Part shown: piece after piece, positions 15,727 to 35,731 of the stretch
Position numbering within the stretch: position 1 is the first letter of the stretch
How the letters are laid out: the number at the start of each line of letters is the position of its first letter
Origin: an uncultured Spirochaetales bacterium
GTDB lineage: Bacteria > Myxococcota_A > UBA9160 > SMWR01
Assembly: GCA_964437835.1 (NCBI GenBank)
Contig: CAYTJA010000466.1
Coordinates: forward strand, 6,019-70,018
DNA length: 64,000 nt
Direction: 5' to 3'
The notes under the pieces: model-generated
Databases searched by the model: none
What the model saw: the letters and a program-made list of their open reading frames with translations, nothing else
Told to the model about the DNA's origin: nothing
Translations under genes and position numbers: made by a program

Positions 15727-16809
15727 GTGCGGATGGGTTGCGCGATCGTCGGAACAGCGCTCTTCGCGGGCGCCTTCGGGGCGCTGGTGTTCGGCAGCGG
15801 CGGCCCCGACGACGCCCGGGGAGCGGGCAATGCGTCTCGCAGCGCTGCCGCGCTCCGCGCTGCCGAAGCATCCGCGCCGCAATCGCGCCGAGCCCCGCTC
15901 GCTGCGCCGGGCTCCCGAGCCACGACCCGGCTGCCACGGATCCGCCCGGCAGCGGCAGCGCCGACCGCAGCCGCGCTGGCCTCGCGCGAGCAGCTCGAAG
16001 TCTGGAAGCGCCAGCTGCGCGACGGCGCGCGGCGCGAGGTCGTCGGGAACGCGGAACTCGCGCGAACGCAGGCCCGCCTGCGCTCGCTCGATGCGCGCGA
16101 GCTCGGCGCGCTGCGGGAGCTGATCGAGGCCAATGAACTCTCGGAAGCGTCCTCGGGACACGACCTCGACGACGGCGACGGCCGTTTCGAGCCGTGGGAG
16201 CTCGGCTTCCAGATCTGGGAGCACGGGCACCTGGTGCTGCTCGCGCTAGGTCCGGATCCCTACGCGAGCTACGGCTATGCGCTGCGCGCGCTGCCCGAGG
16301 CCGTCGCGGCCTTCGAGCGGCTCGAGCTGCTCGATCTCAGCGGCGGCGAGCTCGGGCAGCTGCCCGACGCGCTCGGCCGGCTAGCGCAGCTGCGCGAGCT
16401 GCGCCTCGCGCACAATCAGCTCGACGCCCTGCCCGAGAGCCTCGGAGAGCTGATCCAGCTCGAGCGCCTGGTGCTGAGCGCCAACCGGATCGAAGCGCTG
16501 CCCCGCTCGCTGCGCGGCCTCGAACAGCTCGAGGAGCTCTGGCTCGCGGACAATCCCCTCGCAGAGCTGCCGGCCGAGCTGCTGGAGCTGCCCGCGCTGC
16601 GCCAGCTCGACGTCTCGCAGTCGCTCGGCGCGGCGCAGCTGCCGCCCGAGCGCGGGCTGCGCGAGCTTCCGGAGGTCGCGCGCGCGGCGAGGCTCGAAGC
16701 GCTCTACGTCGCCGGAAACCGGCTGTGTGGCGCGGCCGTCTCCGCTGCCCGCTTCGACGGCTCGGCTCGCCCACTTCGCGGTCTCGGGCTGCAGCGCTGC
16801 GAAAGCTGA
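15727..16809 (+). CDS. leucine-rich repeat (LRR) protein with N-terminal hydrophobic segment
   Basis: 360-aa ORF. N-terminal CAIVGTALFAGAFGALVF. The C-terminal half is a run of LxxLxLxxNxLxxLP units (LELLDLSGGELGQLPDALGRLAQLRELRLAHNQLDALPESLGELIQLERLVLSANRIEALPRSLRGLEQLEELWLADNPLAELP...). Confidence 0.75.
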   Translation: MRMGCAIVGTALFAGAFGALVFGSGGPDDARGAGNASRSAAALRAAEASAPQSRRAPLAAPGSRATTRLPRIRPAAAAPTAAALASREQLEVWKRQLRDGARREVVGNAELARTQARLRSLDARELGALRELIEANELSEASSGHDLDDGDGRFEPWELGFQIWEHGHLVLLALGPDPYASYGYALRALPEAVAAFERLELLDLSGGELGQLPDALGRLAQLRELRLAHNQLDALPESLGELIQLERLVLSANRIEALPRSLRGLEQLEELWLADNPLAELPAELLELPALRQLDVSQSLGAAQLPPERGLRELPEVARAARLEALYVAGNRLCGAAVSAARFDGSARPLRGLGLQRCES

Positions 16810-16836: not shown

Positions 16837-19800
16837 ATGGCGCGGCGCGGAAGACTCGTGCTCGAGCGCGGCCCCGAAGACGCGGTCGGCCTGCCCGCCT
16901 CGCTCGAGGCCGAGCGCCTGATCCTGGGCCGCGGCAGCGATTCCGACATTCGGCTCCCGGTCGCCGCGGTCTCGCGCGTGCACGCCGAGATCGTCTGGCA
17001 GGGCGAGCGCCTGATGCTGATCGCGCGCAGCACGACCAGCCCGACCGCGGTGAACGGCAGCAGCCTCGAGGGCTCGCGCGAGCTCGCGGACGGCGATCAG
17101 ATCGAGCTCGCGAACCAGGTGCTGCTGCGCGTCGAGCTGCCGCCGGCCGAGCCTGCGCGGGTGGCTGCGGATTCCGCCACGCTGGTGTTTGCCGCGCCGA
17201 CTCCGACTCCGGTGGCTCCAGCGCGCGCCCCGGTGGCGCCCGCAGCTCCGGCGGCGCCGGCGGCTCCTGCGGCGCCAGCAGCCCCTGCGACGCCCGCGCC
17301 CGTTGCGGCGCCAGCAGCGCCTGCGACACCCGTACCCGCTGCGCCGCCGGCAGCCCCTGCTAGGCCCGTACCCGCTGCGCCGCCGGCAGCTGCGGTCGCG
17401 GCTCCGGCAGCGGTCGCTCCGTCCCCCCCCGCCGCTGCGCCCGCGCCAGCCGCGGCGCCTGACGCGTTCAAGGGCCCCGCGCGCATCGCGATCGTCGGCG
17501 CGGGACCCGCCGGCATCGCCGCGGGGGTGCAGGCCGCCAAACGCGGCGTGCCTCACGTGCTGCTCGAGCGCGGCCGCCTGGCCGAGACGATCGAGCGCTA
17601 CCAGAAGGGCAAGTTCGTGATGGACGAGCCCACCCGGCTCACGCTGCATCCCGAGCTCGAGGTCGGCTTCAAGGCCGGCGCGCGCGAGGAGATCCTCGCG
17701 ACCTGGCAGAAGGCCGTGTCGCAGGCCGGAGTCGAGCTGCGCTGCGGGCGCGAGTTCGGGGTCCAGGAGATCCGCGGGCAGCGGGGGGCCTTCGAGCTCG
17801 TGTTGCGCGGTGGCGAGCGAATCCAGGCCACCCACGTGGTGCTCGCGATCGGGGTGCAGGGCAATCTCAAGAGCTTCGGCGTCGCAGGCGACGATCTGCC
17901 CCACGTCACCTATCAGCTCGACGACCCAGCCGCCTACGAGGGCAAGCGCGTCGCGATCGTCGGCGTCGGCGACGCCGGGATCGAGAACGCGCTCGCGCTC
18001 GCGCAGCACGACAACGACGTCTTCATCGTGAACCGGCGCGACGAGTTCGCGCGCGCGAAAGCGCGCAACCGCGCGCTCGTCGATGCCGCGATCAAGAGCG
18101 GCCAGATCGCGCACTACACCCACAGTACGGTCGACCACTTCGAGCCCGGCGCGGTCGTGCTGCGCCGCAAGGAAGGTCAGGAGCGCCTCGAGCTCGACCT
18201 CGTGATCGGCCGCCTCGGCGGAAACCCGCCGCGCGACTTCCTGCAGGGCCTCGGCGTGCAGTTCGCGTCGGAAGATCCCGAGGCCGTGCCCGAGCTCTCG
18301 CCGAGCTACGAGACGAACGTTCCGGGCATCTTCGTGATCGGCGCGCTCGCGGGCTACCCGCTGATCAAGAACTGCATGAACCAGGGCTTCGAGGTCGTCG
18401 AGCACATCCTCGGCCAGCCCGTCACCCCGGCCGACGAGCCGCTGTTGCGCGAGAAGTTCAAGGGCATTCCGGGCAGCGTCAGCGAGATTCTCGAGCGCAT
18501 CCGCCGCCGCGTGCCGGTGTTCCGCGATCTCACGCCGGTCCAGCTGCGTGAGTTCTTGTTCGAAGCGGAGGTGAAGCAACTGAAAGCTGGCGAGGTCGTC
18601 TACCGCCGCAACGACTACACCAACGAGTTCTACGCGGTGCTCGCGGGCAAGGTCGCGCTCGAGGAGCCCTCCCTGGAACGCGACGTCGACGTCGGGCGCA
18701 CGATCGCGTTCACGCGCACGCTGCTCGCACAGGACATCCAGGGCTACCGGCGCGAGGTGCCGATCGGCGGCTTCTTCGGCGAGACCGAGCTCTTCTCGGG
18801 TCGGCGTCGCAGTGCGACGGCCACCGCGCTCGAGCCGACCCTCGTCATCGAGGCGCCGCGCCTCTCGATGGCGCGGCTGCTGCAGTCGACTCCGGCCGTG
18901 CAGCGAGCCGTGGATGCGGTGTTTGTCGAGCGCACGCTCGAAAAGCGCCTGCCCGAGCTCTCCGCGGCCGAGCGCGCGGCGCTCGCGGCTGCGGCCGAGA
19001 TCCGCCACTACCCCCCCGATCAGGTGATCTTCAAGGAAGGCGACGCGCCGGACGGTCTGCACCTGATCCGGCGTGGGTCGGTCGCGATCCAGCGCGTGGT
19101 CGACGGCCGCGAGCGCGTGATGCAGTACCTGCAGACCGGCGCGTGGCTCGGCGTGATGGGCGTGCTGTCGCCGGAGCTCGGCCGCCGAGCATCGGTGCGC
19201 GCGAAGGTGCTGACCGAGACGCTGCTGCTGCCGCAAGCCGCGCTGCTGCCGCTGCTCAAATCGAACCGCGCGCTGCGCGAGGGGCTCCAGCGCTGCGCGA
19301 ACGAGGACGCCGTCTGGGACGCCATGCAGGCCGAGGGCGGCGGCGGAACGATGCTCTTCATTCTCGACAAGACCGGGGCCTTCGAGGCCACCGACCTGCT
19401 GCTGATCGACGAGTCGCTCTGCATCCGCTGCGACAACTGCGAGAAGGCCTGCGCGGACACGCACCTCGGCCTCTCGCGCCTCGATCGCGAAGCCGGGCCG
19501 ACCTATCAGACCTCCGGCGGCGCGCAGCTGCACGTGCCGACGGCCTGCCAGCACTGCGAGAACCCGAAGTGCATGGAGGACTGCCCACCCGACGCGATCC
19601 GCCGCCACGCGAACGGCGAGGTCTACATCAAGGACAACTGCATCGGCTGCGGCAACTGCAAGAACAACTGTCCCTACGGCGTGATCCAAATGGCGACGGT
19701 CGAGCCGTATCGGAAGGCGAACCTGCTGGCTCAGCTGCTGCTCGGCAGCAGCCCGAAGCGCGGCGGCGGCGCGCACGCCGAAGGCGAGGCGCACTCCGAA

Positions 19801-19947
19801 GCCGCGGTGAAGTGCGACCTCTGCCAGGGGCTGCCCGCGCCGAAGCGCGGCGGCACGCGCGCGGCCTGCGTCGCGGCCTGCCCGACCGGAGCGATCGTGC
19901 GCGTCGAGCCGCGCAACTTCATCGCCGAGCTGGTCAAAGGGCGTTGA
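16837..19947 (+). CDS. multidomain redox/signalling protein: FHA, Pro/Ala linker, FAD/NAD(P) pyridine-nucleotide-disulfide-oxidoreductase-like domain, 2x cyclic-nucleotide-binding domain, 4Fe-4S ferredoxin clusters
   Basis: 1036-aa ORF. FHA (LILGRGSDSDIRLPVAAVSRVHAEIVWQG...INGSS-type). IAIVGAGPAGIAAG and VAIVGVGDAGIENA dinucleotide folds. cNMP motifs GGFFGETELFSGRRRSATATA and FKEGDAPDGLHLIRRGSV. Cys clusters CIRCDNCEKAC, CQHCENPKCMEDCP, CIGCGNCKNNCP, CDLCQG...CVAACP. Confidence 0.85.
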   Translation: MARRGRLVLERGPEDAVGLPASLEAERLILGRGSDSDIRLPVAAVSRVHAEIVWQGERLMLIARSTTSPTAVNGSSLEGSRELADGDQIELANQVLLRVELPPAEPARVAADSATLVFAAPTPTPVAPARAPVAPAAPAAPAAPAAPAAPATPAPVAAPAAPATPVPAAPPAAPARPVPAAPPAAAVAAPAAVAPSPPAAAPAPAAAPDAFKGPARIAIVGAGPAGIAAGVQAAKRGVPHVLLERGRLAETIERYQKGKFVMDEPTRLTLHPELEVGFKAGAREEILATWQKAVSQAGVELRCGREFGVQEIRGQRGAFELVLRGGERIQATHVVLAIGVQGNLKSFGVAGDDLPHVTYQLDDPAAYEGKRVAIVGVGDAGIENALALAQHDNDVFIVNRRDEFARAKARNRALVDAAIKSGQIAHYTHSTVDHFEPGAVVLRRKEGQERLELDLVIGRLGGNPPRDFLQGLGVQFASEDPEAVPELSPSYETNVPGIFVIGALAGYPLIKNCMNQGFEVVEHILGQPVTPADEPLLREKFKGIPGSVSEILERIRRRVPVFRDLTPVQLREFLFEAEVKQLKAGEVVYRRNDYTNEFYAVLAGKVALEEPSLERDVDVGRTIAFTRTLLAQDIQGYRREVPIGGFFGETELFSGRRRSATATALEPTLVIEAPRLSMARLLQSTPAVQRAVDAVFVERTLEKRLPELSAAERAALAAAAEIRHYPPDQVIFKEGDAPDGLHLIRRGSVAIQRVVDGRERVMQYLQTGAWLGVMGVLSPELGRRASVRAKVLTETLLLPQAALLPLLKSNRALREGLQRCANEDAVWDAMQAEGGGGTMLFILDKTGAFEATDLLLIDESLCIRCDNCEKACADTHLGLSRLDREAGPTYQTSGGAQLHVPTACQHCENPKCMEDCPPDAIRRHANGEVYIKDNCIGCGNCKNNCPYGVIQMATVEPYRKANLLAQLLLGSSPKRGGGAHAEGEAHSEAAVKCDLCQGLPAPKRGGTRAACVAACPTGAIVRVEPRNFIAELVKGR
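17269..17390 (+). repeat. degenerate 36-nt (12-codon) tandem repeats encoding the Pro/Ala linker
   Basis: Exact 26-nt direct repeat CCCGTACCCGCTGCGCCGCCGGCAGC at 17329-17354 and 17365-17390. Related units GCGGCGCCAGCAGC(C/G)CCTGCGAC start at 17269 and 17305. Period is 36 nt. Confidence 0.7.
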
Positions 19948-19949
19948 GC

Positions 19950-20999
19950 GTGGCCGTGGCCTTCGACCCGCTGATGCGACTTCGCGCGCGCGACCGCCGC
20001 CGGCTCGCAAGCGGCCTCGGGCTGGGCCTCGCGCTGGGCCTGGCACTCTGCGTGGCCGGCTGGCCCGGCACCGGCGTCAGCCTCGCGGGCTTCTGCGCCG
20101 CGAGCGGCCTCGGGCTCGGCTGGGCCAACTGGCCGCAGTGGCGCAAGGCCGCCTGGTGGCGCGGCCGCGGCGGCCTGCCGAAGAGTTACGCCCCCCGCAG
20201 CTTCCTGCGCTACGGGAACTTCCTGCACCTGAAGCTCGCGCTGACTGCCGTGGCCGCCGCCTCGCTCGCCTATCTCCTCGACGACCCGCCCGGAGGTCCC
20301 AGCGGGGGCAGCGCCCTCGGCTATGCGCTCGGGGTCTTCTCGACCGCGTTGGTCGTCTGGCTGCTCTGGTTCGGCGTGCGCAAGCGGCGCTACGACGGCG
20401 GCGGCGCGCCGCTGCAGGCCTGGCTCTCCGGCCACGTCTACCTCGGCCTGACGCTGCTCGTGCTGGTGCCGCTGCACTGCGGCTTCCAGTTCGGCTGGAA
20501 CGTGCACTCGCTGGCCGGAGCCCTGCTGTTCCTGACGCTCGTCTCCGGGATCTTCGGGCTCGTGGCCTACACGCAGATTCCCGCGCGCATGACGCGCAAC
20601 CGTCCCGGTCAGCAGCTCGAGGGCCTGCTGCAGCAGGTCGCCGATATCGACGAGCAGCTGCGCGCCGAGGCGCGCGAGCTGCGCAATGCCGAGCCCGTGC
20701 GGCGCGCGATCGAAGAGACCCGGATCGGTGGCGGCCTCGCGGCGCTGCTCTTCTTCTCGGAGGCGAATTGCGCGACCACGCAGGCGCAGGCCGCGCTGAA
20801 GCGCGCGCGCGACGACGACCCCGGTCTGCTGCGCCCGCTCGAGCTGCTGACGACCAAACAGGCGATCCTGCGCCGCGTGCGGCGCGACCTGCGCTACAAG
20901 GCGCTGCTCGACCTATGGCTCGTGCTGCACGTGCCGCTCTCGCTCGCGTGCGTGGCTGCGGTTGCAGTGCACGTGCTCGCGGTCTTCTACTACCGGTGA
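19950..20999 (+). CDS. polytopic membrane protein with two H-x13-H transmembrane helices (di-haem cytochrome-b-like)
   Basis: Track ORF 19143..20999 trimmed to GTG 19950 (alternative ATG 19974), 3 nt after the upstream stop. About 7 hydrophobic helices. GHVYLGLTLLVLVPLH and LHVPLSLACVAAVAVH each place two His exactly 13 residues apart. Confidence 0.65.
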   Translation: MAVAFDPLMRLRARDRRRLASGLGLGLALGLALCVAGWPGTGVSLAGFCAASGLGLGWANWPQWRKAAWWRGRGGLPKSYAPRSFLRYGNFLHLKLALTAVAAASLAYLLDDPPGGPSGGSALGYALGVFSTALVVWLLWFGVRKRRYDGGGAPLQAWLSGHVYLGLTLLVLVPLHCGFQFGWNVHSLAGALLFLTLVSGIFGLVAYTQIPARMTRNRPGQQLEGLLQQVADIDEQLRAEARELRNAEPVRRAIEETRIGGGLAALLFFSEANCATTQAQAALKRARDDDPGLLRPLELLTTKQAILRRVRRDLRYKALLDLWLVLHVPLSLACVAAVAVHVLAVFYYR

Positions 21000-21002: not shown

Positions 21003-22841
21003 ATGCGACTGCGCCTGATCCAGGTCACGAGGCGGAAGTCCGGGCGCGAGTCGCGGCGCGAGTCGCAGCTCGAGGGCGAGCTGCTCGCACTCGGGCGCGG
21101 CTCCGACTGCGACCTCGAGCTCGTCGACCTGTCCGTCGCGCTCCGGCACGCGGAGCTGTTGCGCAAGGGCGATGGCGTGTACCTGCGGCCGGTCGGCCGC
21201 AGCGAGCTCAGCGTCTCGGGCCAGCGCTGCGTCGGCGAGCGGCGACTCGCGGTCGGCGATGTGGTGCGCATCGGTCCCTTCGAGCTGCGCGCGATCGCGG
21301 CCGAGGCCGGATTCGATCTCGCGCTCGAAGTCGAACAGATGGCGCGCCGCGAGGACGCGCGCGGCGAGCTCGCCAAGCGCAGCCGCCTGACGGTCGAGGG
21401 GGGATGGTTCTCGCGCCGCACGCTCTCCTTTGCCGGCGTCGCGGTGGTGCTGCTCGGCTTCCTCGTGCTGCCGCTCGCGCTCGGGCGCGCGGGCTCCTGG
21501 AGCAGCGGGCCCCTCTCCCACAAACACTCGTTCGCGGCCGATGACTGCGGCGAGTGCCACACGCGCGCGTTCGCCACCGTCGAGAACGGCGCCTGCCTCG
21601 ACTGCCACGCGGAGATCGGCAACCACAGCGACTCCCCGGCGCTCGCAGCCGCCGGCATGACCGGGGCCGCCTGCACCGACTGCCACAGCGAGCACGCGGG
21701 CGAGCCCGGTCTGCTCGCGCGCGCGCAGGACAGCTGCGCGGGCTGCCACACGGATCTCTCGCAGCGGCTCGAGCAGCCGCGCGTCGCGAATGCGAGCGAC
21801 TTCGCTGCGGACCACCCCGAGTTCCAGCTCGCGATGCTCGACCCCGCCACGCGCAAGGCGACCCCCGTCGGCTGGCAGCGGGATCTCGAGGAGCGCTCCG
21901 GCGTGGCCTTCTCACACGCGCGGCACGTCGGTGAAGCATTGCCCGAGGTGCCGGAGCGCCTGCGCAGCGACCCCGCGCGCAAGAGCGAGCCGCTGCGCTG
22001 CTCGAGCTGCCACCAGCTCGAAGCGGGAGGCCAGCGCATGCAGCCGATCGAGTTCGAGAAACACTGTCAGGCCTGCCACCAGCTCGGCTTCGACGCCGCG
22101 CTGCCGGACGACCAGGCGCCGCACGCGAAGCCGGTCGAGCTGCGCGAGGGGCTGCGCAGGCTCTACGCCGCGCAGGTGGTCGCGGGCAATGCGGCCGCGG
22201 TCGCGCTGCCGGAGGCGCTGCGCTTCCGGATCCCCGGCTCGACGCTCTCGGACCAGGAACAGTCGCAGGCGCAGGGCTTCGTCGACGCCCGCGTCCGGCG
22301 CGCCGAGCACGCGCTCTACGTCGAGCCCGGCGAGTGCGCGCGCTGCCACGCGCTCGAGCGCGACGCGCCGGCTGCGAGCGAAGAGAGCGGAGCGGGCGAA
22401 GCGTCCCTGGCCAAGCCGCCGAGCGTTCCGCCGGTCTATATCACCGAGCGCTGGATGCCGCAGTCGATGTTCCGGCACGCGACGCACGCGCCCTTCCCCT
22501 GCGCGGACTGCCACCCGGCCGCGGCGGCCTATCTCGAGGGCGGCGACGCCGAGAACCCGCGCCCCGAGTGGTCGCTGCCGGAGGCCGGGCCCTTTGCCCT
22601 GCGCACAGAAGCCGAGCTCCAAGAGCTCGGGCTGACGCCCAGCAAGCTGGCGTCCGACCTGCTGATTCCCGGCATCGAGCAGTGCCGCGGCTGCCACGGC
22701 GGCGAGAATGCGCGGCCGCCCGAGGTGGCCTCCGAGTGCAGCCTCTGCCACCGCTTCCACCGCGCCGAGCACGGGCCGATGCAGCCGGGCGGCGCGGCGC
22801 GGCCCTCGCCGGTGGCCCGCAACGCGGCGCACTCGGACTGA
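21003..22841 (+). CDS. FHA domain - single TM - decahaem c-type cytochrome
   Basis: 612-aa ORF. N-terminal FHA-like LALGRGSDCDLELVDLSVALRHAELLRKGDGVYL. TM helix LSFAGVAVVLLGFLVLPLAL. Ten CxxCH motifs: CGECH, CLDCH, CTDCH, CAGCH, CSSCH, CQACH, CARCH, CADCH, CRGCH, CSLCH. Confidence 0.85.
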   Translation: MRLRLIQVTRRKSGRESRRESQLEGELLALGRGSDCDLELVDLSVALRHAELLRKGDGVYLRPVGRSELSVSGQRCVGERRLAVGDVVRIGPFELRAIAAEAGFDLALEVEQMARREDARGELAKRSRLTVEGGWFSRRTLSFAGVAVVLLGFLVLPLALGRAGSWSSGPLSHKHSFAADDCGECHTRAFATVENGACLDCHAEIGNHSDSPALAAAGMTGAACTDCHSEHAGEPGLLARAQDSCAGCHTDLSQRLEQPRVANASDFAADHPEFQLAMLDPATRKATPVGWQRDLEERSGVAFSHARHVGEALPEVPERLRSDPARKSEPLRCSSCHQLEAGGQRMQPIEFEKHCQACHQLGFDAALPDDQAPHAKPVELREGLRRLYAAQVVAGNAAAVALPEALRFRIPGSTLSDQEQSQAQGFVDARVRRAEHALYVEPGECARCHALERDAPAASEESGAGEASLAKPPSVPPVYITERWMPQSMFRHATHAPFPCADCHPAAAAYLEGGDAENPRPEWSLPEAGPFALRTEAELQELGLTPSKLASDLLIPGIEQCRGCHGGENARPPEVASECSLCHRFHRAEHGPMQPGGAARPSPVARNAAHSD

Positions 22842-22925
22842 CATTATCGGTCTCGCGACACCACCGCCTCTCCACCCCCGCGAACTGATAGAGTGGCGTT
22901 CGGGGGGAGTAAAGGTGGCGCCGAT

Positions 22926-23570
22926 ATGCAGACTCGAGTCGTGGCGCTATTCGCTGCTCTCATGCTCGCCCCGCTCCAGAGCTCGGCCGGTTCCGGTGGA
23001 GTCGTCACCTTCGGAGGTAGCTCAACACCGGAAGGCTGCACAGGCGGCAACTGCCATCCGGAAGGCAGCCCGGGCTTGACGACTCAGCTCAGCGGTCCCG
23101 GCTCCGTATCGATCGGCACCTTGAATCAATACACGATGAGCGTGGCAGGGGTGACAGCGCTTCAGTTCTGCGGAATCAATATCGCAGCGGACAGCGGCAG
23201 CCTGATGGCGGCCCCACCTTGGACCCAGAAGTACATCTTCTCCGACCAGTTGACGCACACGCAACCGACTCAACCCTGCAGCTTCACATTCGGCTGGGTG
23301 GCACCTGGAACGCCCGACACCTATTACCTCCGCGCGACGGCCGTGGCGGGGAATTCGAATGGCAACCGACGCGACGACACCGCAGTTCCGCTCAACGCAT
23401 TTCCCATCACCGTGCTGCCGGAGCCGAGCCCAAACATGCTGCTGGCAATCGCGGTCGCCACGCTGACCCTTGCCTCGGGCGGTCGTGCCCCCGAGCAGCG
23501 TCCGCTCAGAAGGACACGTCGGCGCCGATGGTCCACAGCACATCGGGGCGCAAGCCATTCTGGCGATTGA
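22926..23570 (+). CDS. secreted protein with CX4CH motif and PEP-CTERM-like C-terminal anchor
   Basis: Track ORF 22893..23570 trimmed to ATG 22926 (signal peptide MQTRVVALFAALMLAPLQSSAG). CTGGNCH motif. C-terminal LPEPSPNMLLAIAVATLTLA followed by an Arg cluster. Lies in a lower-G+C patch. The last 65 nt overlap the convergent OMP gene. Confidence 0.5.
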   Translation: MQTRVVALFAALMLAPLQSSAGSGGVVTFGGSSTPEGCTGGNCHPEGSPGLTTQLSGPGSVSIGTLNQYTMSVAGVTALQFCGINIAADSGSLMAAPPWTQKYIFSDQLTHTQPTQPCSFTFGWVAPGTPDTYYLRATAVAGNSNGNRRDDTAVPLNAFPITVLPEPSPNMLLAIAVATLTLASGGRAPEQRPLRRTRRRRWSTAHRGASHSGD

Positions 23571-24858: not shown

Positions 24859-24907
24859 TTCCCCGAACCGCGGCTCCGATGAGGCCTGGCTTCGGCATTC
24901 GAGCGAT

Positions 24908-27574: not shown

Positions 27575-29635
27575 TTGCGCCTCAGCACCACGGGGATCTA
27601 CTGCGTCGCCGCCGCATCGGCGCTGTTGCTGGCGAGCTGCAAAGGGAAAAGCAGCCCGCGCGGGGGCCCGGACTCCCTCTGCGATGGCGCGTGCCTGCAA
27701 CAGGCGCTTACGCAGAACGATGTCGAGCACGTGGTCGCGCAGGCCAGCATCGAGGCGCAGGCCCAGGGCCTGCCGGTCACGATCGCGGTAGTCGACCGCG
27801 TCGGAAATGTGCTCGCGGTGTTCCGCATGACGGGCGCGTCGACCACCGTGGAGATCTCGGCCGGCCGTTCGAGCGCAAACGGTTCGGGGCTCGCCGGCTT
27901 CGAAATCGAGACGACGCTGGCCGCGATCAGCAAGGCCGGCACTGCGGCCTATCTCTCCTCGCAGGGCAACGCCTTTTCCACCCGGACCGCGAGCCAGATC
28001 GTGCAGGAGAACTTCAACCCGGGGGAGCGCGTGCGCGCGGGTGGCCCACTCTTCGGCGTGCAGTTCTCGCAGCTTCCCTGCGGAGATTTCGTGCGGCGTT
28101 TCGAGAGGAATGGCCTGACCGAGGACGTCTCGCTCGGACCCAAGCGCATGCCGCTCGGCTTCTCGGCCGATCCGGGCGGACTTCCGCTCTACAAGAGCGG
28201 CGTGCCCGTCGGCGGCGTCGGGATCGAGCTCGGCACGAACGCGAGCGCGCCGGCCGAGCAGAGCTACCGAACCGATCCCGACGTGCTCGACCAGGACGTC
28301 CAGCGCGAGGAACGCATCGCGACTGCCGCGGCTGTGAGCTTTGCGGCGCCCGCGAACCGGCGCGCGAACGCGATCTCCGTCGACGGCCGCTTCCTGCGCT
28401 TTGCGGACGATGAGCGCGTCTCGACGCAGCCGATCCCACTCGCGACGCCCGTGACTCTCCCGCCCTCGCTCGGGGTACTCGTGGATGTCGACGGCTTCTT
28501 CGCCGGGGGCGGCGTCCTCGCGGGCACGGAATTGCTGACCCCGGCCTCCGGCATCGTCGCGAGCAGTGTGGACGGGATCGCGGCCGAGCTCGTGGTCAAA
28601 ACGGACGGCACGAATCGCTACCCCGCGATCGACTCGCTCGTGCCCACGCCGGCGGCGGGCGGCATGAGCACCGCCGAAGTCACCGCCGTGCTGCGCGAGG
28701 CATTGCGCGTCGCCGGCCGCTCGCGCGCGCAGATCCGCCGGCCCGCGGGCTCGTCGGTGCGCGTGAACATCTCCATCGTCGACACCGAAGGAACGGTGCT
28801 CGGCTTCGCGCGCACGCCCGACGCGCCGATCTTCGGCGCGGACGTCTCGCTGCAGAAAGCGCGCACGGCGGCGTTCCTGTCGCGGCTCGTGCCTACCTCC
28901 GCAGCCGACGATCTGATCGCGGCGCTCCCGCCACTGCCGGAAGTCACCGCGAAATTCGACACGCGCCCGGTTTCCGAATACCTGATCGCGGCCCAGACTT
29001 TCCTCGCGAAGCCCGATGTCCTCGACGACGGCACCGCGATCAGCGACCGCACGCTCGGCAACCTCGCGCGGCCTTTCTTCCCGGACGGCGTGAACGGCAA
29101 CCCGCCCGGCCCCTTTTCGCGCGTCTTCGAGCGCTGGAGCCCCTTCTCGACCGGGCTGCAGCTCGACGCCGGCCTGCAGGGCATCGCGGTTGCGCTGTGC
29201 CGGAGCTCGCGCGAGCTCCGCAGCCTCCTGTCGATGACCGCCGTCGGCATGTCTCTGATCCCCCCGATCGACCCCGACTTTCCGAACACCTGTCCGGCCG
29301 AGCCGATCGCCTGCACCGATGCGCTCGGCCTCGACCCCGCGCTGCGCGAGCTCGCGAACGGCCTGCAGATCTTTCCCGGCAGCGTGCCGATCTACCGCGG
29401 CTCGCAGCTCGTCGGCGCGATCGGGGTCTCGGGGGACGGCGTCGATCAGGACGACATGGTCGCGTTCCTCGGCCTGCACAACGCGGGCCAGCTGCTCGGC
29501 ACCGGGATCGGAAACGCCCCGATTGCGCAGCGCGCCGACCAGATCCAGGTCGGCGGCGTCAACCTGCGTTATGTGAGCTGTCCGCCGAGCCCCTTCCTCG
29601 ACAGCTCGGAGCAGAGCCCGTGCAAGGGACTGTGA
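27575..29635 (+). CDS. lipoprotein with two GlcG/HbpS-like (DUF336) putative haem-binding domains
   Basis: 686-aa ORF (TTG start). Lipobox LLLASC. Domain 1: VTIAVVDRVGNVLAVFRM...AISKAGTAAYLSS...GGLPLYKSGVPVGGVGI. Domain 2: VNISIVDTEGTVLGFARTPDAPIFGADVSLQKARTAAF...IYRGSQLVGAIGVSGDGVDQDDMVA. Confidence 0.7.
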   Translation: MRLSTTGIYCVAAASALLLASCKGKSSPRGGPDSLCDGACLQQALTQNDVEHVVAQASIEAQAQGLPVTIAVVDRVGNVLAVFRMTGASTTVEISAGRSSANGSGLAGFEIETTLAAISKAGTAAYLSSQGNAFSTRTASQIVQENFNPGERVRAGGPLFGVQFSQLPCGDFVRRFERNGLTEDVSLGPKRMPLGFSADPGGLPLYKSGVPVGGVGIELGTNASAPAEQSYRTDPDVLDQDVQREERIATAAAVSFAAPANRRANAISVDGRFLRFADDERVSTQPIPLATPVTLPPSLGVLVDVDGFFAGGGVLAGTELLTPASGIVASSVDGIAAELVVKTDGTNRYPAIDSLVPTPAAGGMSTAEVTAVLREALRVAGRSRAQIRRPAGSSVRVNISIVDTEGTVLGFARTPDAPIFGADVSLQKARTAAFLSRLVPTSAADDLIAALPPLPEVTAKFDTRPVSEYLIAAQTFLAKPDVLDDGTAISDRTLGNLARPFFPDGVNGNPPGPFSRVFERWSPFSTGLQLDAGLQGIAVALCRSSRELRSLLSMTAVGMSLIPPIDPDFPNTCPAEPIACTDALGLDPALRELANGLQIFPGSVPIYRGSQLVGAIGVSGDGVDQDDMVAFLGLHNAGQLLGTGIGNAPIAQRADQIQVGGVNLRYVSCPPSPFLDSSEQSPCKGL

Positions 29636-31824
29636 GCGGCCGCAGGCGCGCGCGCGTTTTCGCGCGGGTCGTGTGTGCTGCGCTGCCGCTGCTCGCGCCC
29701 GCGGCGCACGCCGCCGACGCTGCGCTGCTCGCGCTGCGTGTCGGCGAGCACCCGGGCTACACGCGCGTCGTGCTCGAGCTCGACGTCGCGGCGCCGCTGA
29801 GCCTCGAGGAGCAGACCCGCATCGGTGACGCCAGCGAGCTGACGCTGCTGCTCAGCGCGGTCGCCGCCGCCGCGCAGCGAGTTCCCGGGAGCGGCCTCGT
29901 CGAGAGCATCCGCGTCGAGCCGCTCGCAGACGCGACGCGCGTGCGCATCCAACTGCGCGAGGCCGGAGTCGAATGGAAGCGCTCCGAGCTTTCGGGACCG
30001 CCGCGCTGGGTGCTCGACTTCTCGACCGGCAGCGGTCTCAGCGATGCGGAGCCCGGCGCCGGCCCCGCGCCGACTGTTGCAGAGCCCCCGCTGCTGGCTC
30101 GAGCGGAGGAAGTGGACGCGACGCCCGTGCCGCCGCGTTCCCGCCTGCGCCGGCCCGGCGACCGCGCGACGCCGCAGCCCGCGGTCGCAGGGCGCTCCAG
30201 CGATCCGGAGATCGCGGCCCGCAGCGCCGCGCGCGAGCGGCTGCCGCTGCCGGACTACGACTTCGTCGCGGTCCCCGACCGCTGGCGCATCGTCGAGAAC
30301 ATCGGCGTGAACGAAAGATTCTGGGATCCCTATCACCAGAACACCCTCAAGGGCGACCGCCCGATCCTCGGTACGCATGACTGGTTCGTGAACCTGGCCG
30401 CGATCTCCGACACCGTCGTCGAGCCGCGCCGGCTGCCGACGCCGGTCGGCCTGCAGGCGGAGCGCAAAGCCGGGCGCAACGGAATCTTCGGTGCCGGCGA
30501 GCAGCTGCTCGTAGTGCAGAACCTGATCCTGTCGGCGTCGCTGATCCAGGGCAACACCGTGTTCCGCCCGCCGGACTGGGAGTTCCGCTTCACGGGCGTC
30601 GGCAACGTCAACTACGCCGAGGTCGAGACGCTCGGCGTGTTGAAGGCCGACCCGGCCAAGGGCAGGAGCCGCACGGACGGGCACTTCGGCCTGCAGGAGG
30701 CCTTCGTCGACCGCCACCTGCGCAACAAGTCCGAGCGCTACGACTTCGACAGCCTGCGGCTCGGCGTGCAGCCCTTCATCTCCGACTTCCGCGGCTTCCT
30801 GTTCCAGGACAGCCAGCTCGGCGCGCGCGTCTTCGGCACCGCAGCGAACAACCGCATCCAGTACAACCTCGCCTACTTCCAGCGCCTCGAGAAGGACACG
30901 AACTCGGGGCTGAACCGATTCGACGCGCTGCGTGAGGACGGCGTGCTGTTCGCGAACGCCTACTACCAGGATTTCCCGGTGCTCGGCTTCACGAGCCAGG
31001 CGATCGTCGCCTACAACTGGAATCGCGAGGCCGACGACCGCCATTACAACGACAACGACTTCCTCGAGCGGCCCGCCCCGATCGGCGACGCGCGCGGCCA
31101 CGACTACGACGTCGTGTATCTCGGGCTGAACGGCGATGGCCACATCGACCGACTCAATCTCACCTTCGCCGGCTACTACGCGGCCGGGCACGACTCGCAC
31201 CAGCCGCTCGCGGCGCACAGCGCTGCGATCTCGGCCTGGTTCACCGCGCTGGAGGGCTCGCTCGACTTCGACTGGGTTCGGCTCAAGGCCTTCGGCCTGT
31301 TCGCGAGCGGCGATGCGGACCCGGAAGACGACCTCGCGACCGGCTTCGACGCGATCTTCGAGAATCCGCAGTTCGCGGGCGCCGACACCAGCTTCTTCCA
31401 GCGGCAGGGCATCCCGCTGATCTTCGGCGGCGGCGTCGTGCTGGTGTCGCGCAACGCGCTGCTGCCTTCGCTGCGAACCTCGAAGGAGGAAGGCCAGTCG
31501 AACTTCGTGAATCCGGGGCTCGGGCTGCTGGGCGTCGGCGCAGACCTCGACATCCTGCCCGAGCTGCGCCTGGTGGCGAACGCGAGCTGGCTCACGTTCC
31601 ACGAGGTCGACTCGCTGCAGCTGCTGCGCAACCAGGCCGAGGTCGACCATGAAATCGGCTGGGACCTCTCGGCCGGCCTGATCTACCGCCCGCTCTTGAT
31701 CCAGAACGTCGCGTTCCGCGTGTCCGGAGCGGTGCTGCTGCCGGGCGCCGGGATGCGCGATCTCTTCGAGACGCACCCGTCGCCCTTCTACTCGGTGCTG
31801 CTGAATCTCACGCTCACGTACTGA
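29632..31824 (+). CDS. AMIN-domain protein fused to a large outer-membrane beta-barrel
   Basis: Track ORF 29197..31824 trimmed to GTG 29632 (GTGA overlap with the upstream stop). Signal peptide ...LLAPAAHA. AMIN-like ALRVGEHPGYTRVVLELD...RVRIQL...RWVLDF. About 550 aa of beta-strand-rich sequence ending ...LLNLTLTY. Confidence 0.7.
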   Translation: MSGRRRARVFARVVCAALPLLAPAAHAADAALLALRVGEHPGYTRVVLELDVAAPLSLEEQTRIGDASELTLLLSAVAAAAQRVPGSGLVESIRVEPLADATRVRIQLREAGVEWKRSELSGPPRWVLDFSTGSGLSDAEPGAGPAPTVAEPPLLARAEEVDATPVPPRSRLRRPGDRATPQPAVAGRSSDPEIAARSAARERLPLPDYDFVAVPDRWRIVENIGVNERFWDPYHQNTLKGDRPILGTHDWFVNLAAISDTVVEPRRLPTPVGLQAERKAGRNGIFGAGEQLLVVQNLILSASLIQGNTVFRPPDWEFRFTGVGNVNYAEVETLGVLKADPAKGRSRTDGHFGLQEAFVDRHLRNKSERYDFDSLRLGVQPFISDFRGFLFQDSQLGARVFGTAANNRIQYNLAYFQRLEKDTNSGLNRFDALREDGVLFANAYYQDFPVLGFTSQAIVAYNWNREADDRHYNDNDFLERPAPIGDARGHDYDVVYLGLNGDGHIDRLNLTFAGYYAAGHDSHQPLAAHSAAISAWFTALEGSLDFDWVRLKAFGLFASGDADPEDDLATGFDAIFENPQFAGADTSFFQRQGIPLIFGGGVVLVSRNALLPSLRTSKEEGQSNFVNPGLGLLGVGADLDILPELRLVANASWLTFHEVDSLQLLRNQAEVDHEIGWDLSAGLIYRPLLIQNVAFRVSGAVLLPGAGMRDLFETHPSPFYSVLLNLTLTY

Positions 31825-31837: not shown

Positions 31838-34800
31838 ATGAAGCTCGCGTTTCCGCTCACGACCGCCCTCGCCGCCGCACTGCTCGCGGCGGTCGCGGCA
31901 GGCGCAGCCGAAGGAGAGGCGCCGCGCGAGATCGCCTATCCGAGCACCCCACCCGCGCCCGAGCACCAGGACAGCGCGCAAGCGGAGGCCAAGAGCGCGG
32001 GCTGCCGCAGCTGCCATACCCCGATGGACGAGGCGAGCATGCACGCGACGCCGGGCGTCGAGCTCGGCTGCAGCGACTGCCACGGCGGAAATGCCGAGAC
32101 CGCGCGCCCCGCGCAGAGTTTTCCGGGCGGCCGCGCCTACGAAGAGGCCAAGGCGCGCGCGCACGTGCAGCCGCGCTATCCGCACGCGTGGGGCCTCGAC
32201 GAGGAGGGGCGGCGTGTCGGCCCGCAGCCGGTGCGCGCCTACACGCTCTACAACCGCGAAGCACCGGAATTCATCCGCTTCGTGAACCCGGGCGACCTGC
32301 GCGTGGCCGAGGAAGCCTGCGGCGCGTGCCACGCGGAGATCGTGCAGGCGAACCGGCGCAGCCTGATGGCGACCGGCGCGATGCTCTGGGGAGGAGCCTC
32401 GTACAACAACGGGATTCTTCCCTTCAAGCGCTACGTGCTCGGCGAGGCCTACACGCGCGACGGTCAGCCGGCCGCGATCGAGAGCCGCTTCGAAATCAGC
32501 CCCGAGCTCGCGAAGCGCGGCGTGCTGCCGCGCTTCCTGCCGCTGCCCGCCTGGGAGACGATCCCTCCTATGGACAACTTCCGCGTCTTCGAGCGCGGCG
32601 GCAAGTTCAACGTTTCGCAGTTCCCGGAGATCGGTCTGCCCAAGTCGCAGGACGATCCCGGCAAGCCCGACATCCGCCAGAGCAACCGCGGCGAGGGCAC
32701 CGGCGCGCGCATCGCGGTGCCCGCGCTGAACATCCACAAGACGCGCCTCAACGATCCCTTGCTGTGGTTCCCCGGCACGAACGACAACCCCGGCGACTTC
32801 CGCGCCTCGGGCTGCAGCGGCTGCCACGTCGTCTACGCGAACGACCGCGAGCCGCTGCACTCGGGCCTCTACGCGGCCGCCGGGCACCAGGGCCAGTCCC
32901 AGAGCGCCGACCCGACGATCGCGGAGCGGCTGAACGCCAGCGGCCACAAGGAGTCCGGCCACCCGCTGAAGCACGCCTTCACGCGCGCAATTCCGACCGC
33001 GCAGTGCATGACCTGCCACATGCATCAGCCGAACATGTTCGTGAACTCCTACCTCGGCTACACGATGTGGGACTACGAGGCCGATGCGCCGCTGATGTGG
33101 CCGAAGCAGCAGGCCTACCCCTCCATCCCGGAGATGCACGAGCGCCTCGAGCGCAACCCCGAGGAGGCGAACATCCGTGGCCTCTGGGGAGACCCCGAAT
33201 TCCTCTCCCGCGTCTGGGACGACGTAAACCCGCAGGCGCGCGACACGCAGTTTGCCGACTATCACGGCCACGGCTGGAACTTCCGCGGCGTGTTCAAGCG
33301 CAACCGCAAGGGCGCGCTGCTCGACGCGAAGGGCGAGACGATCCCCGACGACCTGCCGCCCAAGCAGAAATGGCAGCGAGCGGTCCACCTGCGCGACATC
33401 CACGTCGAGTACGGGATGCAGTGCTCGGACTGCCACTTCGCACAGGACTCGCACGGCGACGGCTTCCTGAAAGGGGAGGTCGCGGCCGCGGTCGAGATCG
33501 GCTGCGCGGACTGCCACGGCACCAGCCGCGCGCGGCCGACGCTGCGCACATCGGGCCCCGCGGCACCGCCGGGCGGCAACGACCTCAGCTTCTTGCGCAA
33601 CGCGGATGGCGGCGCGCGCTTCGTCTGGCGCGGCGAGCGCTTGTACCAGCGCCTGGTCCTGCCGCCGCACACAGAGATCGAAGTCACGCAGGTGATCGAC
33701 ACCGTGACCAGGGGCCATCCGGCCTACAACGCCAAGGCCGCGCGCGCGAAGACCCTCGAGCGCGGGCCCGGCCAGCGCTGGGGCGAGGCGGCTTCGGGTT
33801 GCGAACGCGCGCACGACGACGAGAAGCTGGCCTGCTTCAGCTGCCACTCGTCGTGGGTCACGAGCTGCGGCGGCTGCCACCTGCCGATCCAGGCCAACTG
33901 GAAGACCGAGCGCCACCACTACGAGGGCGGCGAGACGCGCAACTTCGCGACCTACAACCCGCAGGTCGCGCGCGACGAGATGTTCCAGCTGGGCGTCCAC
34001 GGCGAGGCGAAAAACGGCATCATCGCGCCGGTGCGCTCGTCCTCGGCGCTGGTGCTCTCGTCGACCGACATCAACCGCAACCGCATCTACCAGCAGCAGC
34101 CGCCGGTCTCGGCCGGCGGTTTCAGCGCGCAGGCCTTTGCGCCGCACTTCCCGCACACGGTGCGCAAGACCGAGACCAAGACCTGCACGGACTGCCACGT
34201 CTCGCAGCGCAACGACAACAATGCGCTGATGGCGCAGCTGCTGCTGCTCGGCACGAACTTCGTGAACTTCACCGGCTACAACGCGTGGGTCGGAGGCGAG
34301 CGCCATCTCTCCGCGATCCAGGTCACCGAGTGGGACGAGCCGCAGGCCGTACTCGGGAGCTACCTGCACCGGTACGCCTATCCCGACTGGTTCGCGGAGC
34401 ACGAGGCGCGCGGCCGCGAACTCACGCGGCCGAGCCCGGGCGCACTCGACGCGGACCCCGGCTGGGTCGCCTCGCTGCGGCGCTTCTTCCAGGGGAGCTT
34501 CGGAGGCCACGCGATCTACGACGGAACCTACGGCCACGGCTCGGGCCCGGTCGGCTGCCTGCAGCTGCGCGGCGAGTACCTCTACGCGGCCGAGGGCCCG
34601 CGCGGCATGCAGGCCTACGACGTCGCGTCGGTCGCGAACAAGGGCTTCTCGGAGCGCGTGGTCACGGCGCCCTTCTCGCCGCTGGGCCAGAACCTGCGCG
34701 TGAAGTCACGCAACGCGACTTGCGTTGCGCTGCCGACGACCCAGCCGATCCGCCCCGAGCGCAACCGCCAGGTTCGCGAGGCGTTTCCCGAGAACCTCGA

Positions 34801-35731
34801 GCAGGCGATGCACCCGATCTACAGCTATGCCGCGGTGACCGACTCCGAAGAGGGCCTGATCCTCGTGAACGTCGAGACCCTCGGCGACTTCGAGCCGCGC
34901 AACAACTTCTTCGAGCGCGCACTGACCTGGAATCCCGGCGGCCTGCTGGATGGCGCGCGGCATGCGCACTTCGCGGGGCACCTGCTCTACGTCTCGGCCG
35001 ACACCGGCATCATCGTCGTCGACCTGAACGACCCGCTGCAGCCGAAGGCGCTCGCGCGGATCCCGCTGATCAAGCCGCGCGCGTCGATGCAGCAATTCCG
35101 CTACCTCTTCGCGGTCGACCTCGAGGGTTTCAAGGTCGTCGATGTGACGAACCCCGCCGCACCGCGCCTCCTGCCCGGCTCGAGCGTGCGCCTCGCCGAC
35201 GCGCGGCGCGTCTTCGTCTCGCGCACCTACGCCTACGTTGCCGCGGGCCGCGAGGGTCTCGTGATCATCGACGTCGAGCGCCCCGAAGAGCCGCGCATCG
35301 CGCAGCGCTTCGACGCGGGCGGCCAGCTCTCCGACGCGCGCGACGTGATCGTCTCGACGACCAACGCCTCGCTCTTCGCCTACGTCGCCGACGGCGTGAA
35401 CGGCCTCAAGGTGCTGCAGCTGACTTCGCCCGAGAGTCAGCCGCGCCTCTACGGCTTCAGCCCCGAGCCGAAACCCGAGCTGATCGCGTGGCGCAAGACT
35501 GCCTCCCCGGCGCTCTCGCTCTCGCGCCCCCTCGAACGCGACCGCGCGGTCGACGAGACCGGCCACCAGATCGCGGTCTTCGGCCGCGTCGGCTCGCGGC
35601 CCTTCGACCTCGAGGAGATGCAGCAGCTGTATCTCGGCGACGACGAGCGCGTCTGGACCGTCGAGGACGAGGAATCCATCCCGAGCGCTGCGCGGGCGAG
35701 CGGCGGACCCCGCGATCGCTGCCCGCCCTGA
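31838..35731 (+). CDS. secreted decahaem c-type cytochrome fused to a C-terminal LVIVD-repeat (beta-propeller-like) region
   Basis: 1297-aa ORF with a signal peptide. Ten CxxCH motifs: CRSCH, CSDCH, CGACH, CSGCH, CMTCH, CSDCH, CADCH, CFSCH, CGGCH, CTDCH. C-terminal repeats: GLILVNVETL, GIIVVDLNDPLQP, GFKVVDVTNPAAP, GLVIIDVERPEEP, GLKVLQLTSPESQP. Confidence 0.85.
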   Translation: MKLAFPLTTALAAALLAAVAAGAAEGEAPREIAYPSTPPAPEHQDSAQAEAKSAGCRSCHTPMDEASMHATPGVELGCSDCHGGNAETARPAQSFPGGRAYEEAKARAHVQPRYPHAWGLDEEGRRVGPQPVRAYTLYNREAPEFIRFVNPGDLRVAEEACGACHAEIVQANRRSLMATGAMLWGGASYNNGILPFKRYVLGEAYTRDGQPAAIESRFEISPELAKRGVLPRFLPLPAWETIPPMDNFRVFERGGKFNVSQFPEIGLPKSQDDPGKPDIRQSNRGEGTGARIAVPALNIHKTRLNDPLLWFPGTNDNPGDFRASGCSGCHVVYANDREPLHSGLYAAAGHQGQSQSADPTIAERLNASGHKESGHPLKHAFTRAIPTAQCMTCHMHQPNMFVNSYLGYTMWDYEADAPLMWPKQQAYPSIPEMHERLERNPEEANIRGLWGDPEFLSRVWDDVNPQARDTQFADYHGHGWNFRGVFKRNRKGALLDAKGETIPDDLPPKQKWQRAVHLRDIHVEYGMQCSDCHFAQDSHGDGFLKGEVAAAVEIGCADCHGTSRARPTLRTSGPAAPPGGNDLSFLRNADGGARFVWRGERLYQRLVLPPHTEIEVTQVIDTVTRGHPAYNAKAARAKTLERGPGQRWGEAASGCERAHDDEKLACFSCHSSWVTSCGGCHLPIQANWKTERHHYEGGETRNFATYNPQVARDEMFQLGVHGEAKNGIIAPVRSSSALVLSSTDINRNRIYQQQPPVSAGGFSAQAFAPHFPHTVRKTETKTCTDCHVSQRNDNNALMAQLLLLGTNFVNFTGYNAWVGGERHLSAIQVTEWDEPQAVLGSYLHRYAYPDWFAEHEARGRELTRPSPGALDADPGWVASLRRFFQGSFGGHAIYDGTYGHGSGPVGCLQLRGEYLYAAEGPRGMQAYDVASVANKGFSERVVTAPFSPLGQNLRVKSRNATCVALPTTQPIRPERNRQVREAFPENLEQAMHPIYSYAAVTDSEEGLILVNVETLGDFEPRNNFFERALTWNPGGLLDGARHAHFAGHLLYVSADTGIIVVDLNDPLQPKALARIPLIKPRASMQQFRYLFAVDLEGFKVVDVTNPAAPRLLPGSSVRLADARRVFVSRTYAYVAAGREGLVIIDVERPEEPRIAQRFDAGGQLSDARDVIVSTTNASLFAYVADGVNGLKVLQLTSPESQPRLYGFSPEPKPELIAWRKTASPALSLSRPLERDRAVDETGHQIAVFGRVGSRPFDLEEMQQLYLGDDERVWTVEDEESIPSAARASGGPRDRCPP

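Follow-up and report, generated by a model that had tools for sequence, protein, structure and literature searches.

A candidate two-haem membrane subunit between a flavo-iron-sulfur protein and a decahaem cytochrome in an uncultured Myxococcota_A bacterium

Here we report a membrane protein that may pass electrons across the cytoplasmic membrane, between a cytoplasmic enzyme and a multihaem cytochrome of the periplasm, in an uncultured Spirochaetales bacterium (GTDB lineage Bacteria; Myxococcota_A; UBA9160; SMWR01). The gene lies at positions 19950..20999 on the forward strand of a 64,000-nucleotide stretch of contig CAYTJA010000466.1 (GenBank assembly GCA_964437835.1, positions 6,019 to 70,018), which is referred to in its whole length as the window, and it encodes a putative di-haem b membrane protein of 349 amino acids. 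Four of its histidines form two pairs of identical spacing on two transmembrane (TM) helices, and the gene stands between those of a flavoprotein with iron-sulfur (FeS) clusters and of a decahaem cytochrome c. The best-supported explanation, which we hold with good confidence, is that the protein is a two-haem transmembrane wire of an unrecognised family. We also consider it likely that it acts as the di-haem b membrane subunit of a three-part electron module that leads from NAD(P)H to the decahaem cytochrome.

The reading frame was established from its translation, from the individual codons and from the homologues. It starts with GTG at 19950, 2 nucleotides past the stop codon of the upstream gene (an alternative ATG is found at 19974), and ends with TGA at 20997-20999, from which the ATG of the downstream gene is separated by 3 nucleotides. 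With intergenic gaps of 2 and 3 nucleotides, the three genes form a tightly packed operon; the genome has a G+C content of 70%. The segment GHVYLGLTLLVLVPLH carries H162 (20433-20435) and H176 (20475-20477), and the segment LHVPLSLACVAAVAVH carries H327 (20928-20930) and H341 (20970-20972), each pair with 13 residues between its members. Two H-x13-H helices had been proposed in an earlier, sequence-only reading of this DNA; both segments occur exactly in the translation of 19920-20999, and the spacing was confirmed codon by codon. The protein contains six histidines in total. When its sequence was shuffled 200,000 times, the frequency of two or more H-x13-H pairs corresponded to P = 0.0023; the pattern is genuine and clearly not what chance would give. 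Both motifs are located within hydrophobic segments (157-181 and 317-349), which are helices in AlphaFold2 models, in agreement with the earlier placement of the motifs inside TM helices.

A protein search returned 173 relatives, nearly all of them unnamed "hypothetical" proteins of ~280 amino acids that span the last 77% of the query. In an alignment of 201 sequences, H162, H327 and H341 were present in all 201 and H176 in 200. Among 137 representatives of 50%-identity clusters, which are 27-48% identical to the query, H162 and H176 were each retained in 137, H327 in 132 and H341 in 131, and all four histidines were invariant in alignments of 44 and 63 sequences as well. The sequence-only reading had named invariance of the four histidines in homologues as a check of its proposal, and the result of that check is essentially positive. 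A further 80 genome loci were retrieved via peptide patterns containing H162 and H176, and the unbiased evidence for these two residues is that of the protein-search sets. Almost as conserved as the four ligand candidates are N184 and a fifth histidine, H186, at the periplasmic start of the fourth core helix; K145-R146, W158, S160, G166, Y207, P211, W323 and P329 are also near-invariant. N184 and H186 (20499-20507) stand at the periplasmic edge of the membrane, 10 residues past the predicted outer haem ligand H176, and could take part in the binding of a haem propionate, in a quinone site or in the contact with the first c haem.

The AlphaFold2 models were all-helical, with a predicted local distance difference test (pLDDT) score of 82 for the whole protein and 90.7 for the core, which was modelled from the N-terminally trimmed protein with the 63-sequence alignment. 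The numbers of lysine plus arginine residues in successive core loops (3/0/4/0/3/7) indicate a core of five helices with the N-terminus inside and the C-terminus outside. Preceding this core is a lineage-specific N-terminal extension (residues 1-84; 19950..20201, pLDDT 44-68) with two extra TM helices, whose ~80 residues are restricted to the closest relatives (P0002, P0034, P0044 and P0048). The core begins with TM1 (~91-110) and TM2 (~121-144, with G128 and G142), encoded at 20220..20381 and followed at the cytoplasmic end by the invariant K145-R146. TM3 (20418..20492) bears the first histidine pair, with H162 on the cytoplasmic and H176 on the periplasmic side, together with the invariant W158, S160 and G166. 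A short periplasmic loop leads to TM4 (20493..20594 including the loop; N184, H186 at 20505-20507, A189, G200, G203, Y207 and P211), and TM5 (20898..20999) bears the second pair, with H327 on the cytoplasmic and H341 on the periplasmic side, together with W323 and P329. Between TM4 and TM5 lies a cytoplasmic helical insert (residues ~216-316; 20595..20897) with Arg/Lys-rich flanks, modelled as a helical bundle that is continuous with long extensions of both helices. All of these elements are encoded on the forward strand. The sequence-only reading had described about seven helices and an insert of ~110 amino acids, which holds for the protein of the window, whereas only the five helices and the insert at ~216-316 are conserved in the family.

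With TM3 and TM5 both running from the inside to the outside, H162 and H327 are placed towards the cytoplasmic side of the membrane and H176 and H341 towards its periplasmic side. The matched depths predicted in this way are those that an inner and an outer haem with bis-histidine ligation require; membrane depths incompatible with such ligation, which the sequence-only reading had held to be decisive against its proposal, are not what the positive-inside rule gives. Near-invariant small residues spaced 14 apart are also found on the two helices that carry no ligand pair, namely G128/G142 on TM2 and H186/G200 and A189/G203 on TM4 (201- and 137-sequence sets). In cytochrome b, the two haems pack against the non-ligand helices at glycine pairs of this spacing. 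The protein combines four invariant histidines on two TM helices with predicted matched depths, as is characteristic of di-haem b four-helix bundles in general.

The upstream gene (16837..19947, forward strand) encodes a protein of 1036 amino acids without TM helix or signal peptide. It consists of a canonical FHA domain, a Pro/Ala-rich linker, a YpdA/TrxR-like FAD/NAD(P)H domain, three domains that bind cyclic nucleotides (cNMP-binding domains) and a C-terminal domain with 16 cysteines, in this order. The YpdA/TrxR-like domain has two GxGxxG motifs (for FAD and NAD(P)H) and is devoid of the redox-active CxxC. In the C-terminal ferredoxin domain (19390-19947, residues 850-1036), the division of the 16 cysteines into four ferredoxin-type groups implies that there are four [4Fe-4S] clusters, as in the HycB/FdnH/NrfC type, and the relatives of this domain in the PDB (HycB, PsrB/NrfC, FdnH and NarH) are four-cluster electron-wire subunits. 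Related literature gives two clusters for a protein of the upstream type, against the four implied here. The FHA domain and the linker (16837-17450) were confined to the window and three myxobacteria-like relatives (L005-L007); at all other loci, the flavoprotein starts at its FAD domain.

The downstream gene (21003..22841, forward strand) encodes a protein of 612 amino acids with an FHA-like domain, a single TM helix (138-166) and ten CxxCH motifs. The FHA-like domain is cytoplasmic and the CxxCH domain periplasmic, the first CxxCH following 16 residues past the helix. The FHA-like domain is divergent and lacks the usual asparagine of the phosphothreonine-binding motif; since it also matches a YscD-type FHA profile, it may have a structural role.

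Synteny was surveyed across 84 related loci. The decahaem gene lies directly downstream of the membrane protein gene in 77 of 77 testable loci (with exactly ten CxxCH motifs in 66), and a gene combining FAD, cNMP-binding and Fer4 domains is adjacent upstream in 64 of 75. Three further genes of the cluster, which encode an HbpS-like, a barrel-like and a decahaem LVIVD protein, co-occur in 41 of 47 loci. One cluster representative (P0186, 1110 amino acids) unites Pyr_redox, cNMP and Fer4 domains and the b-type membrane domain in one polypeptide; it is either a natural fusion, which supports direct contact of the subunits, or an artefact of assembly or read-through. For three translationally coupled genes that encode a flavo-FeS protein, a membrane protein with two histidine-lined sites and a decahaem cytochrome, a single electron path is the simplest account. 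The transmembrane two-haem wire of the sequence-only reading is thus supported by the invariant histidines, their matched depths, the 14-residue spacing, the redox proteins encoded on both sides and weak matches to haem-b families that are described below.

In the mechanism that we propose, the five-helix core would bind two b haems, stacked across the membrane and each ligated by two histidines. The inner haem would be held by H162 of TM3 and H327 of TM5, and the outer haem by H176 of TM3 and H341 of TM5, while TM2 and TM4 would complete the four-helix bundle with small residues at the levels of haem contact. In the cytoplasm, the four-cluster ferredoxin domain of the upstream protein may dock to the Arg/Lys-rich loops and to the insert of ~100 amino acids. 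In the periplasm, the outer haem would adjoin the first c haem of the decahaem cytochrome, which is anchored in the membrane. Electrons would then pass from NAD(P)H via FAD, the four [4Fe-4S] clusters, the inner haem b and the outer haem b to the ten c haems, and possibly onward to the HbpS-like lipoprotein, the barrel-like protein and the second decahaem protein, which has the LVIVD repeat. Quinone would not be needed on this route. An outward flow appears more likely, because the membrane potential assists the export of electrons and opposes their import. The flow is probably gated by the cNMP-binding domains and, in this lineage, also by the canonical FHA domain and a Ser/Thr kinase encoded in an insertion next to the triplet. 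By analogy, the mechanism would resemble that of an NADPH oxidase (NOX) split into subunits, with a ferredoxin wire inserted, and also that of Tmc/Hmc and FdnH-FdnI.

The nearest curated family by sequence is PF01292, the prokaryotic cytochrome b561/Ni-hydrogenase cytochrome b family (FdnI, HyaC, CybB), which was matched weakly by 44 of 44 members of the new family at E < 1 (best E = 2.3e-8). Among the same 44 members, DUF4405 and Ferric_reduct were matched by 14 each and PepSY_TM by 2, and the window protein gave sub-threshold scores with Ferric_reduct (11.2 bits) and DUF4405 (11.4 bits); all of these are haem-b membrane families. In ten homologues, the PF01292 scores were 30.4-34.5 bits, just above the cut-off, in four and 19-29 bits in six. 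The matches were piecewise, TM1-TM3 aligning with positions 14-121 of the profile and TM5 with the di-histidine helix at 132-165, and the profile alignments place the family at the fringe of PF01292. PF01292 proteins such as FdnI (1KQF) and CybB (5OC0) have four helices with both termini inside and ligands on TM1, on TM2 and, twice, on TM4. A ligand pattern of this type was rejected for the new family, which has five helices and an outside C-terminus, Y/W/F/H at the TM1 position, no conserved histidine on TM2, and its pairs on TM3 and TM5. The pairing of an FdnH/HycB-type four-cluster ferredoxin with a di-haem b subunit constitutes the classical beta-gamma module and would be common to both systems; the FeS partner is cytoplasmic here and fused to a flavoprotein, not periplasmic as in PF01292 systems.

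The closest counterpart in ligand topology is the ferric reductase domain superfamily (NOX/FRE/YedZ/STEAP, PF01794), in which four canonical histidines on TM3 and TM5 serve an inner and an outer haem (PMC3591440). The same pattern is found here, with H162/H176 on TM3 and H327/H341 on TM5 and both helices running from the inside to the outside; the spacing is x13/x13, compared with x13/x12 in NOX2. NOX, FRE and MsrQ-Fre likewise have a cytoplasmic NAD(P)H flavoprotein as donor, and their electrons exit on the outer side; MsrQ-Fre is a split "two-component NOX". The new family differs from these proteins in having five helices instead of six and an insert of ~100 amino acids in the TM4-TM5 loop. 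It would also differ in the four-cluster ferredoxin between flavin and haem and in the acceptor, a decahaem cytochrome and not O2, Fe(III) or MsrP. PF01794 (cut-off 28 bits) scored 11.2 bits with the window protein and at most 16.7 bits with homologues, and there is no TM6. The family tests point to an unnamed family of di-haem cytochromes b that is nearest to PF01292 in sequence and to NOX/FRE in ligand topology and is a member of neither.

Cytochrome b of the bc1 and b6f complexes likewise has two H-x13-H helices with one helix between them, and glycines spaced by 14 on the flanking helices. Its ligand helices are B and D, of opposite direction relative to the N-terminus, whereas the third and fifth helices are used here; an assignment to this type was rejected, with no Pfam cytochrome b match at E <= 1, no Qo/Qi motifs and other partners. 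NarI has antiparallel ligand helices with unequal histidine spacing (~9 and 17 residues), and the NarI/DsrM/HdrE type was rejected as well, both pairs being x13 on parallel helices and no Pfam match being obtained. In TmcABCD and HmcABCDEF of sulfate reducers, a periplasmic multihaem cytochrome c is combined with a membrane cytochrome b and a cytoplasmic FeS protein, and the overall logic of the transmembrane path is common to these complexes and the window module. Their cytochrome b is NarI-like, with other histidine spacing and antiparallel ligand helices, their cytoplasmic subunit is HdrD-like and has no flavin or NAD(P)H site, and cNMP and FHA domains are absent; no sequence relationship to Tmc/Hmc was detected.

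Searches of the PDB sequences with phmmer and with profile hmmsearch returned chance matches only, and the NCBIfam scan gave only a chance match to ComEC. The sequence-only reading saw no likeness to cytochrome b, NarI, FdnI or the b561 family, and the searches bear this out, with no curated family above threshold, no PDB sequence and no significant Foldseek match. Its suggestion of a new family stands insofar as no curated family reaches its threshold, and must be qualified insofar as the family borders on PF01292, whose cut-off four of the ten homologues just pass, and earlier publications had already drawn attention to the module.

Several of the results weigh against a two-haem wire. The window protein itself has no Pfam match above threshold, and its PF01292 score of 12.3 bits (E = 0.15) is far under the cut-off of 30.1. 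Comparison of the family profile by hhalign with the single sequences of Escherichia coli MsrQ and CybB gave no match, and comparison with a 12-sequence MsrQ alignment gave a probability of 0.4%; the latter alignment is shallow (relatives of >=82% identity), and its little diversity makes the MsrQ negative a weak one. In Foldseek searches of the PDB, neither the whole model (top matches: the McpS and TorS sensor bundles and ABC exporters) nor the core model had a significant match. No di-haem b fold was recovered, the best matches being sensor helical bundles (E 0.3-1), and cytochrome b561 (4o7g) appeared at rank 42 with E = 2.7. In addition, 11 of 75 loci have no FeS/flavoprotein gene within 10 kb, so that the pair of b and decahaem genes can exist without an adjacent cytoplasmic partner, which leaves room for quinone or another donor. 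These loci (L021, L022, L023, L026, L038, L042, L055-L058 and L074) belong mostly to Beta- and Gammaproteobacteria.

The absence of an InterPro or Pfam family at threshold and of a structural match to haem proteins would also fit a protein that binds no haem at all, with histidines that bind metal or are structural, and that serves as scaffold or anchor for the FHA-decahaem cytochrome and the cytoplasmic FeS protein. We consider such a role very unlikely. If the membrane held no redox cofactor, a gap of ~40 Å would separate the FeS clusters from the c haems and the triplet would be left without an electron path; moreover, it is hard to find another explanation for histidines at matched depths, for the glycine spacing and for weak matches to haem-b membrane families only.

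More weight is due to the main rival of a direct wire from the flavoprotein, namely a di-haem b quinol dehydrogenase or quinone reductase that links the quinone pool to the decahaem cytochrome, with the flavo-FeS protein as an accessory or alternative entry. Quinone-linking proteins of this kind are CymA, CbcL and ImcH, and FdnI and NarI act as redox-loop subunits. The constant association of the b and decahaem genes (77/77), together with the loci that are devoid of an FeS/flavoprotein gene, argues for such a link, as does the largely quinone-reactive character of the cytochromes b in PF01292, the nearest Pfam family. Invariant polar residues by both predicted haem levels could form a quinone site (N184/H186 on the outside; K145, R146, S160 and Y207 on the inside), yet no known quinone-site motif was identified in the protein, although no test for such a site could be made. 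The four-cluster ferredoxin domain ends 2-10 nucleotides before the b gene in 85% of loci and is joined to it in the one fusion protein, and the conserved cytoplasmic insert of ~100 amino acids has no counterpart in known quinol dehydrogenases. On balance, we regard a quinone-linked function as possible, though improbable.

At locus L021, genes for cytochrome c maturation (ccm) are located directly upstream on the other strand. Such ccm genes, which occur in this position in some Betaproteobacteria, and the strict coupling to the gene of a decahaem cytochrome c recall a haem-handling or maturation factor for the adjacent decahaem protein, with transient inner and outer haem sites that would loosely resemble TM-His and P-His of CcsBA and CcmF. 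Two histidine-lined sites at two depths and the invariant H186 at the periplasmic edge would suit this function. It is given low weight because the Trp-rich periplasmic WWD loop of CcmF/CcsBA is missing (the periplasmic loops have 9-11 residues), and there is no Pfam match to the CcmC, CcmF or ResC families. The 14-residue spacing of histidines and glycines is the signature of two fixed, stacked haems, and the tight coupling to an NAD(P)H-flavoprotein with four FeS clusters would be left unexplained, which makes a haem-handling factor a highly improbable reading.

Triplets of this architecture have been encountered before. The cluster ptdABCDEFG was described as a "completely unknown" porin-cytochrome cluster in Alphaproteobacteria of the ocean's oxygen-deficient zones. 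Among its products, PtdE has 4Fe-4S clusters and binds cNMP, PtdF spans the membrane and was called "ferric reductase-like", and PtdG is a decahaem protein (Elbon et al., 10.1101/2023.11.21.568154); the histidine ligands of PtdF were not analysed in that study. In the window, by comparison, flavoprotein and cNMP/FeS protein form a single polypeptide with an extra FHA domain, and the remaining genes encode HbpS-like, barrel-like and LVIVD-decahaem proteins instead of pentahaem, porin and tetrahaem proteins. Two loci of marine Alphaproteobacteria (L024 and L026) have the b and decahaem genes together with tetrahaem and pentahaem genes, in place of those for the HbpS-like, barrel-like and LVIVD proteins, and appear to represent the published ptd variant.

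The "NHC" cluster of Ferrigenium straubiae comprises a [4Fe-4S] protein, a five-helix protein without InterPro match and an FHA-TM-nonahaem cytochrome (10.64898/2026.01.22.701106, section 6.3.2). That triplet is the same in architecture, with nine haems compared with the ten found here. Its authors found no redox motif in the five-helix protein and proposed a scaffold role (10.64898/2026.01.22.701106), whereas the present analysis leads to two predicted haem sites. The order of genes for a cNMP/FeS protein, a membrane protein and a multihaem cytochrome c with a single TM helix, as in PtdEFG and NHC, is that of the window, and from architecture, not from sequence, we infer that the present family is equivalent to PtdF and to the five-helix protein of Ferrigenium. 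The Uet cluster of Tenderiales was considered as a further counterpart and rejected, since it has only the vocabulary of LVIVD and multihaem proteins in common with the window, not the genes.

The family is widespread. When 1.84 billion representatives of 50%-identity clusters were searched with the family profile, 340 clusters matched at E <= 1e-30, 1923 at E <= 1e-10 and 3865 at E <= 1e-3, and a scan of species-representative genomes yielded at least 569 carriers. These include Alpha-, Beta- and Gammaproteobacteria, myxobacteria-like metagenome-assembled genomes and one acidobacterium; among the cultured carriers are Oceanibacterium hippocampi, Zavarzinia sp. CC-PAN008 and Sphingomonas sp. 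1P06PA. Many carriers are aerobic heterotrophs, with Sphingomonas, Novosphingobium, Zavarzinia, SAR116 and Lysobacterales among them, and this occurrence could reflect an unrecognised extracellular reduction of Fe(III), Mn or humic substances, or an enzymatic route to extracellular superoxide. Only tentatively do we extend the proposal to a modular, NADPH-oxidase-like and quinone-free export of electrons across the whole envelope to an external acceptor, which would be switched by cyclic nucleotides and, in Myxococcota, by Ser/Thr phosphorylation read by FHA domains.

The three conserved genes that follow the triplet are all located on the forward strand. The first (27575..29635) encodes an HbpS-like (GlcG) repeat protein that resembles a lipoprotein, with a lipobox-like LLLASC. 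The second (29632..31824), whose start overlaps the preceding stop (GTGA, 29632-29635), encodes a protein of 730 amino acids with a signal peptide and a barrel-like C-terminus ending in ...LTLTY; it has no Pfam match and may be an outer-membrane barrel. The third (31838..35731) encodes a secreted protein of 1297 amino acids with ten CxxCH motifs and an LVIVD beta-propeller repeat. None of the three genes at 27575-35731 has a sequence relative in the PDB.

In the window, the core triplet is parted from these genes by an insertion (22893-27301) that was not seen in the 84 related loci. It contains genes for a secreted protein of 225 amino acids with a PEP-CTERM-like tail (22893-23570, forward strand), an outer-membrane protein of the MetA/phenol-degradation type of 450 amino acids (23506-24858, reverse strand) and a Ser/Thr protein kinase of 797 amino acids with one TM helix (24908-27301, reverse strand). 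The position of the kinase gene beside those of two FHA-bearing redox subunits suggests control by phosphorylation. On the far side of the cluster are genes for a cytochrome c554-like multihaem protein of 445 amino acids (35756-37093, reverse strand) and for an HDOD-GGDEF diguanylate cyclase (37241-38761, forward strand); similar genes for proteins with 4-5 haems flank the cluster in L017, L036 and L048. A leucine-rich-repeat protein gene (15727-16809) is located immediately upstream of the flavoprotein gene, and a gene of this type has the same position in L001 (4274-5470). A CHASE2-guanylate-cyclase gene is found nearby in L001 and is a possible source of cyclic nucleotide for the cNMP-binding domains.

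The mechanism is not a categorically new one; the family, however, is widespread and unannotated, and it is central to clusters that two groups flagged as unexplained. Both studies that met the triplet, one on Alphaproteobacteria of ocean oxygen-minimum zones and one on nitrate-reducing Fe(II) oxidisers, left the task of its membrane subunit unsettled. The four invariant histidines, the glycine spacing and the predicted matched depths supply the missing link between the cytoplasmic NAD(P)H/FeS enzyme and the periplasmic decahaem cytochrome, and turn an unknown cluster into a testable hypothesis of a quinone-independent electron path across the membrane. If confirmed, this path would represent a new architecture among the few transmembrane haem wires that are known and a new coupling of cytoplasmic NAD(P)H to extracellular electron transfer, and it would be the first example of such a chain with cNMP and FHA regulatory domains.

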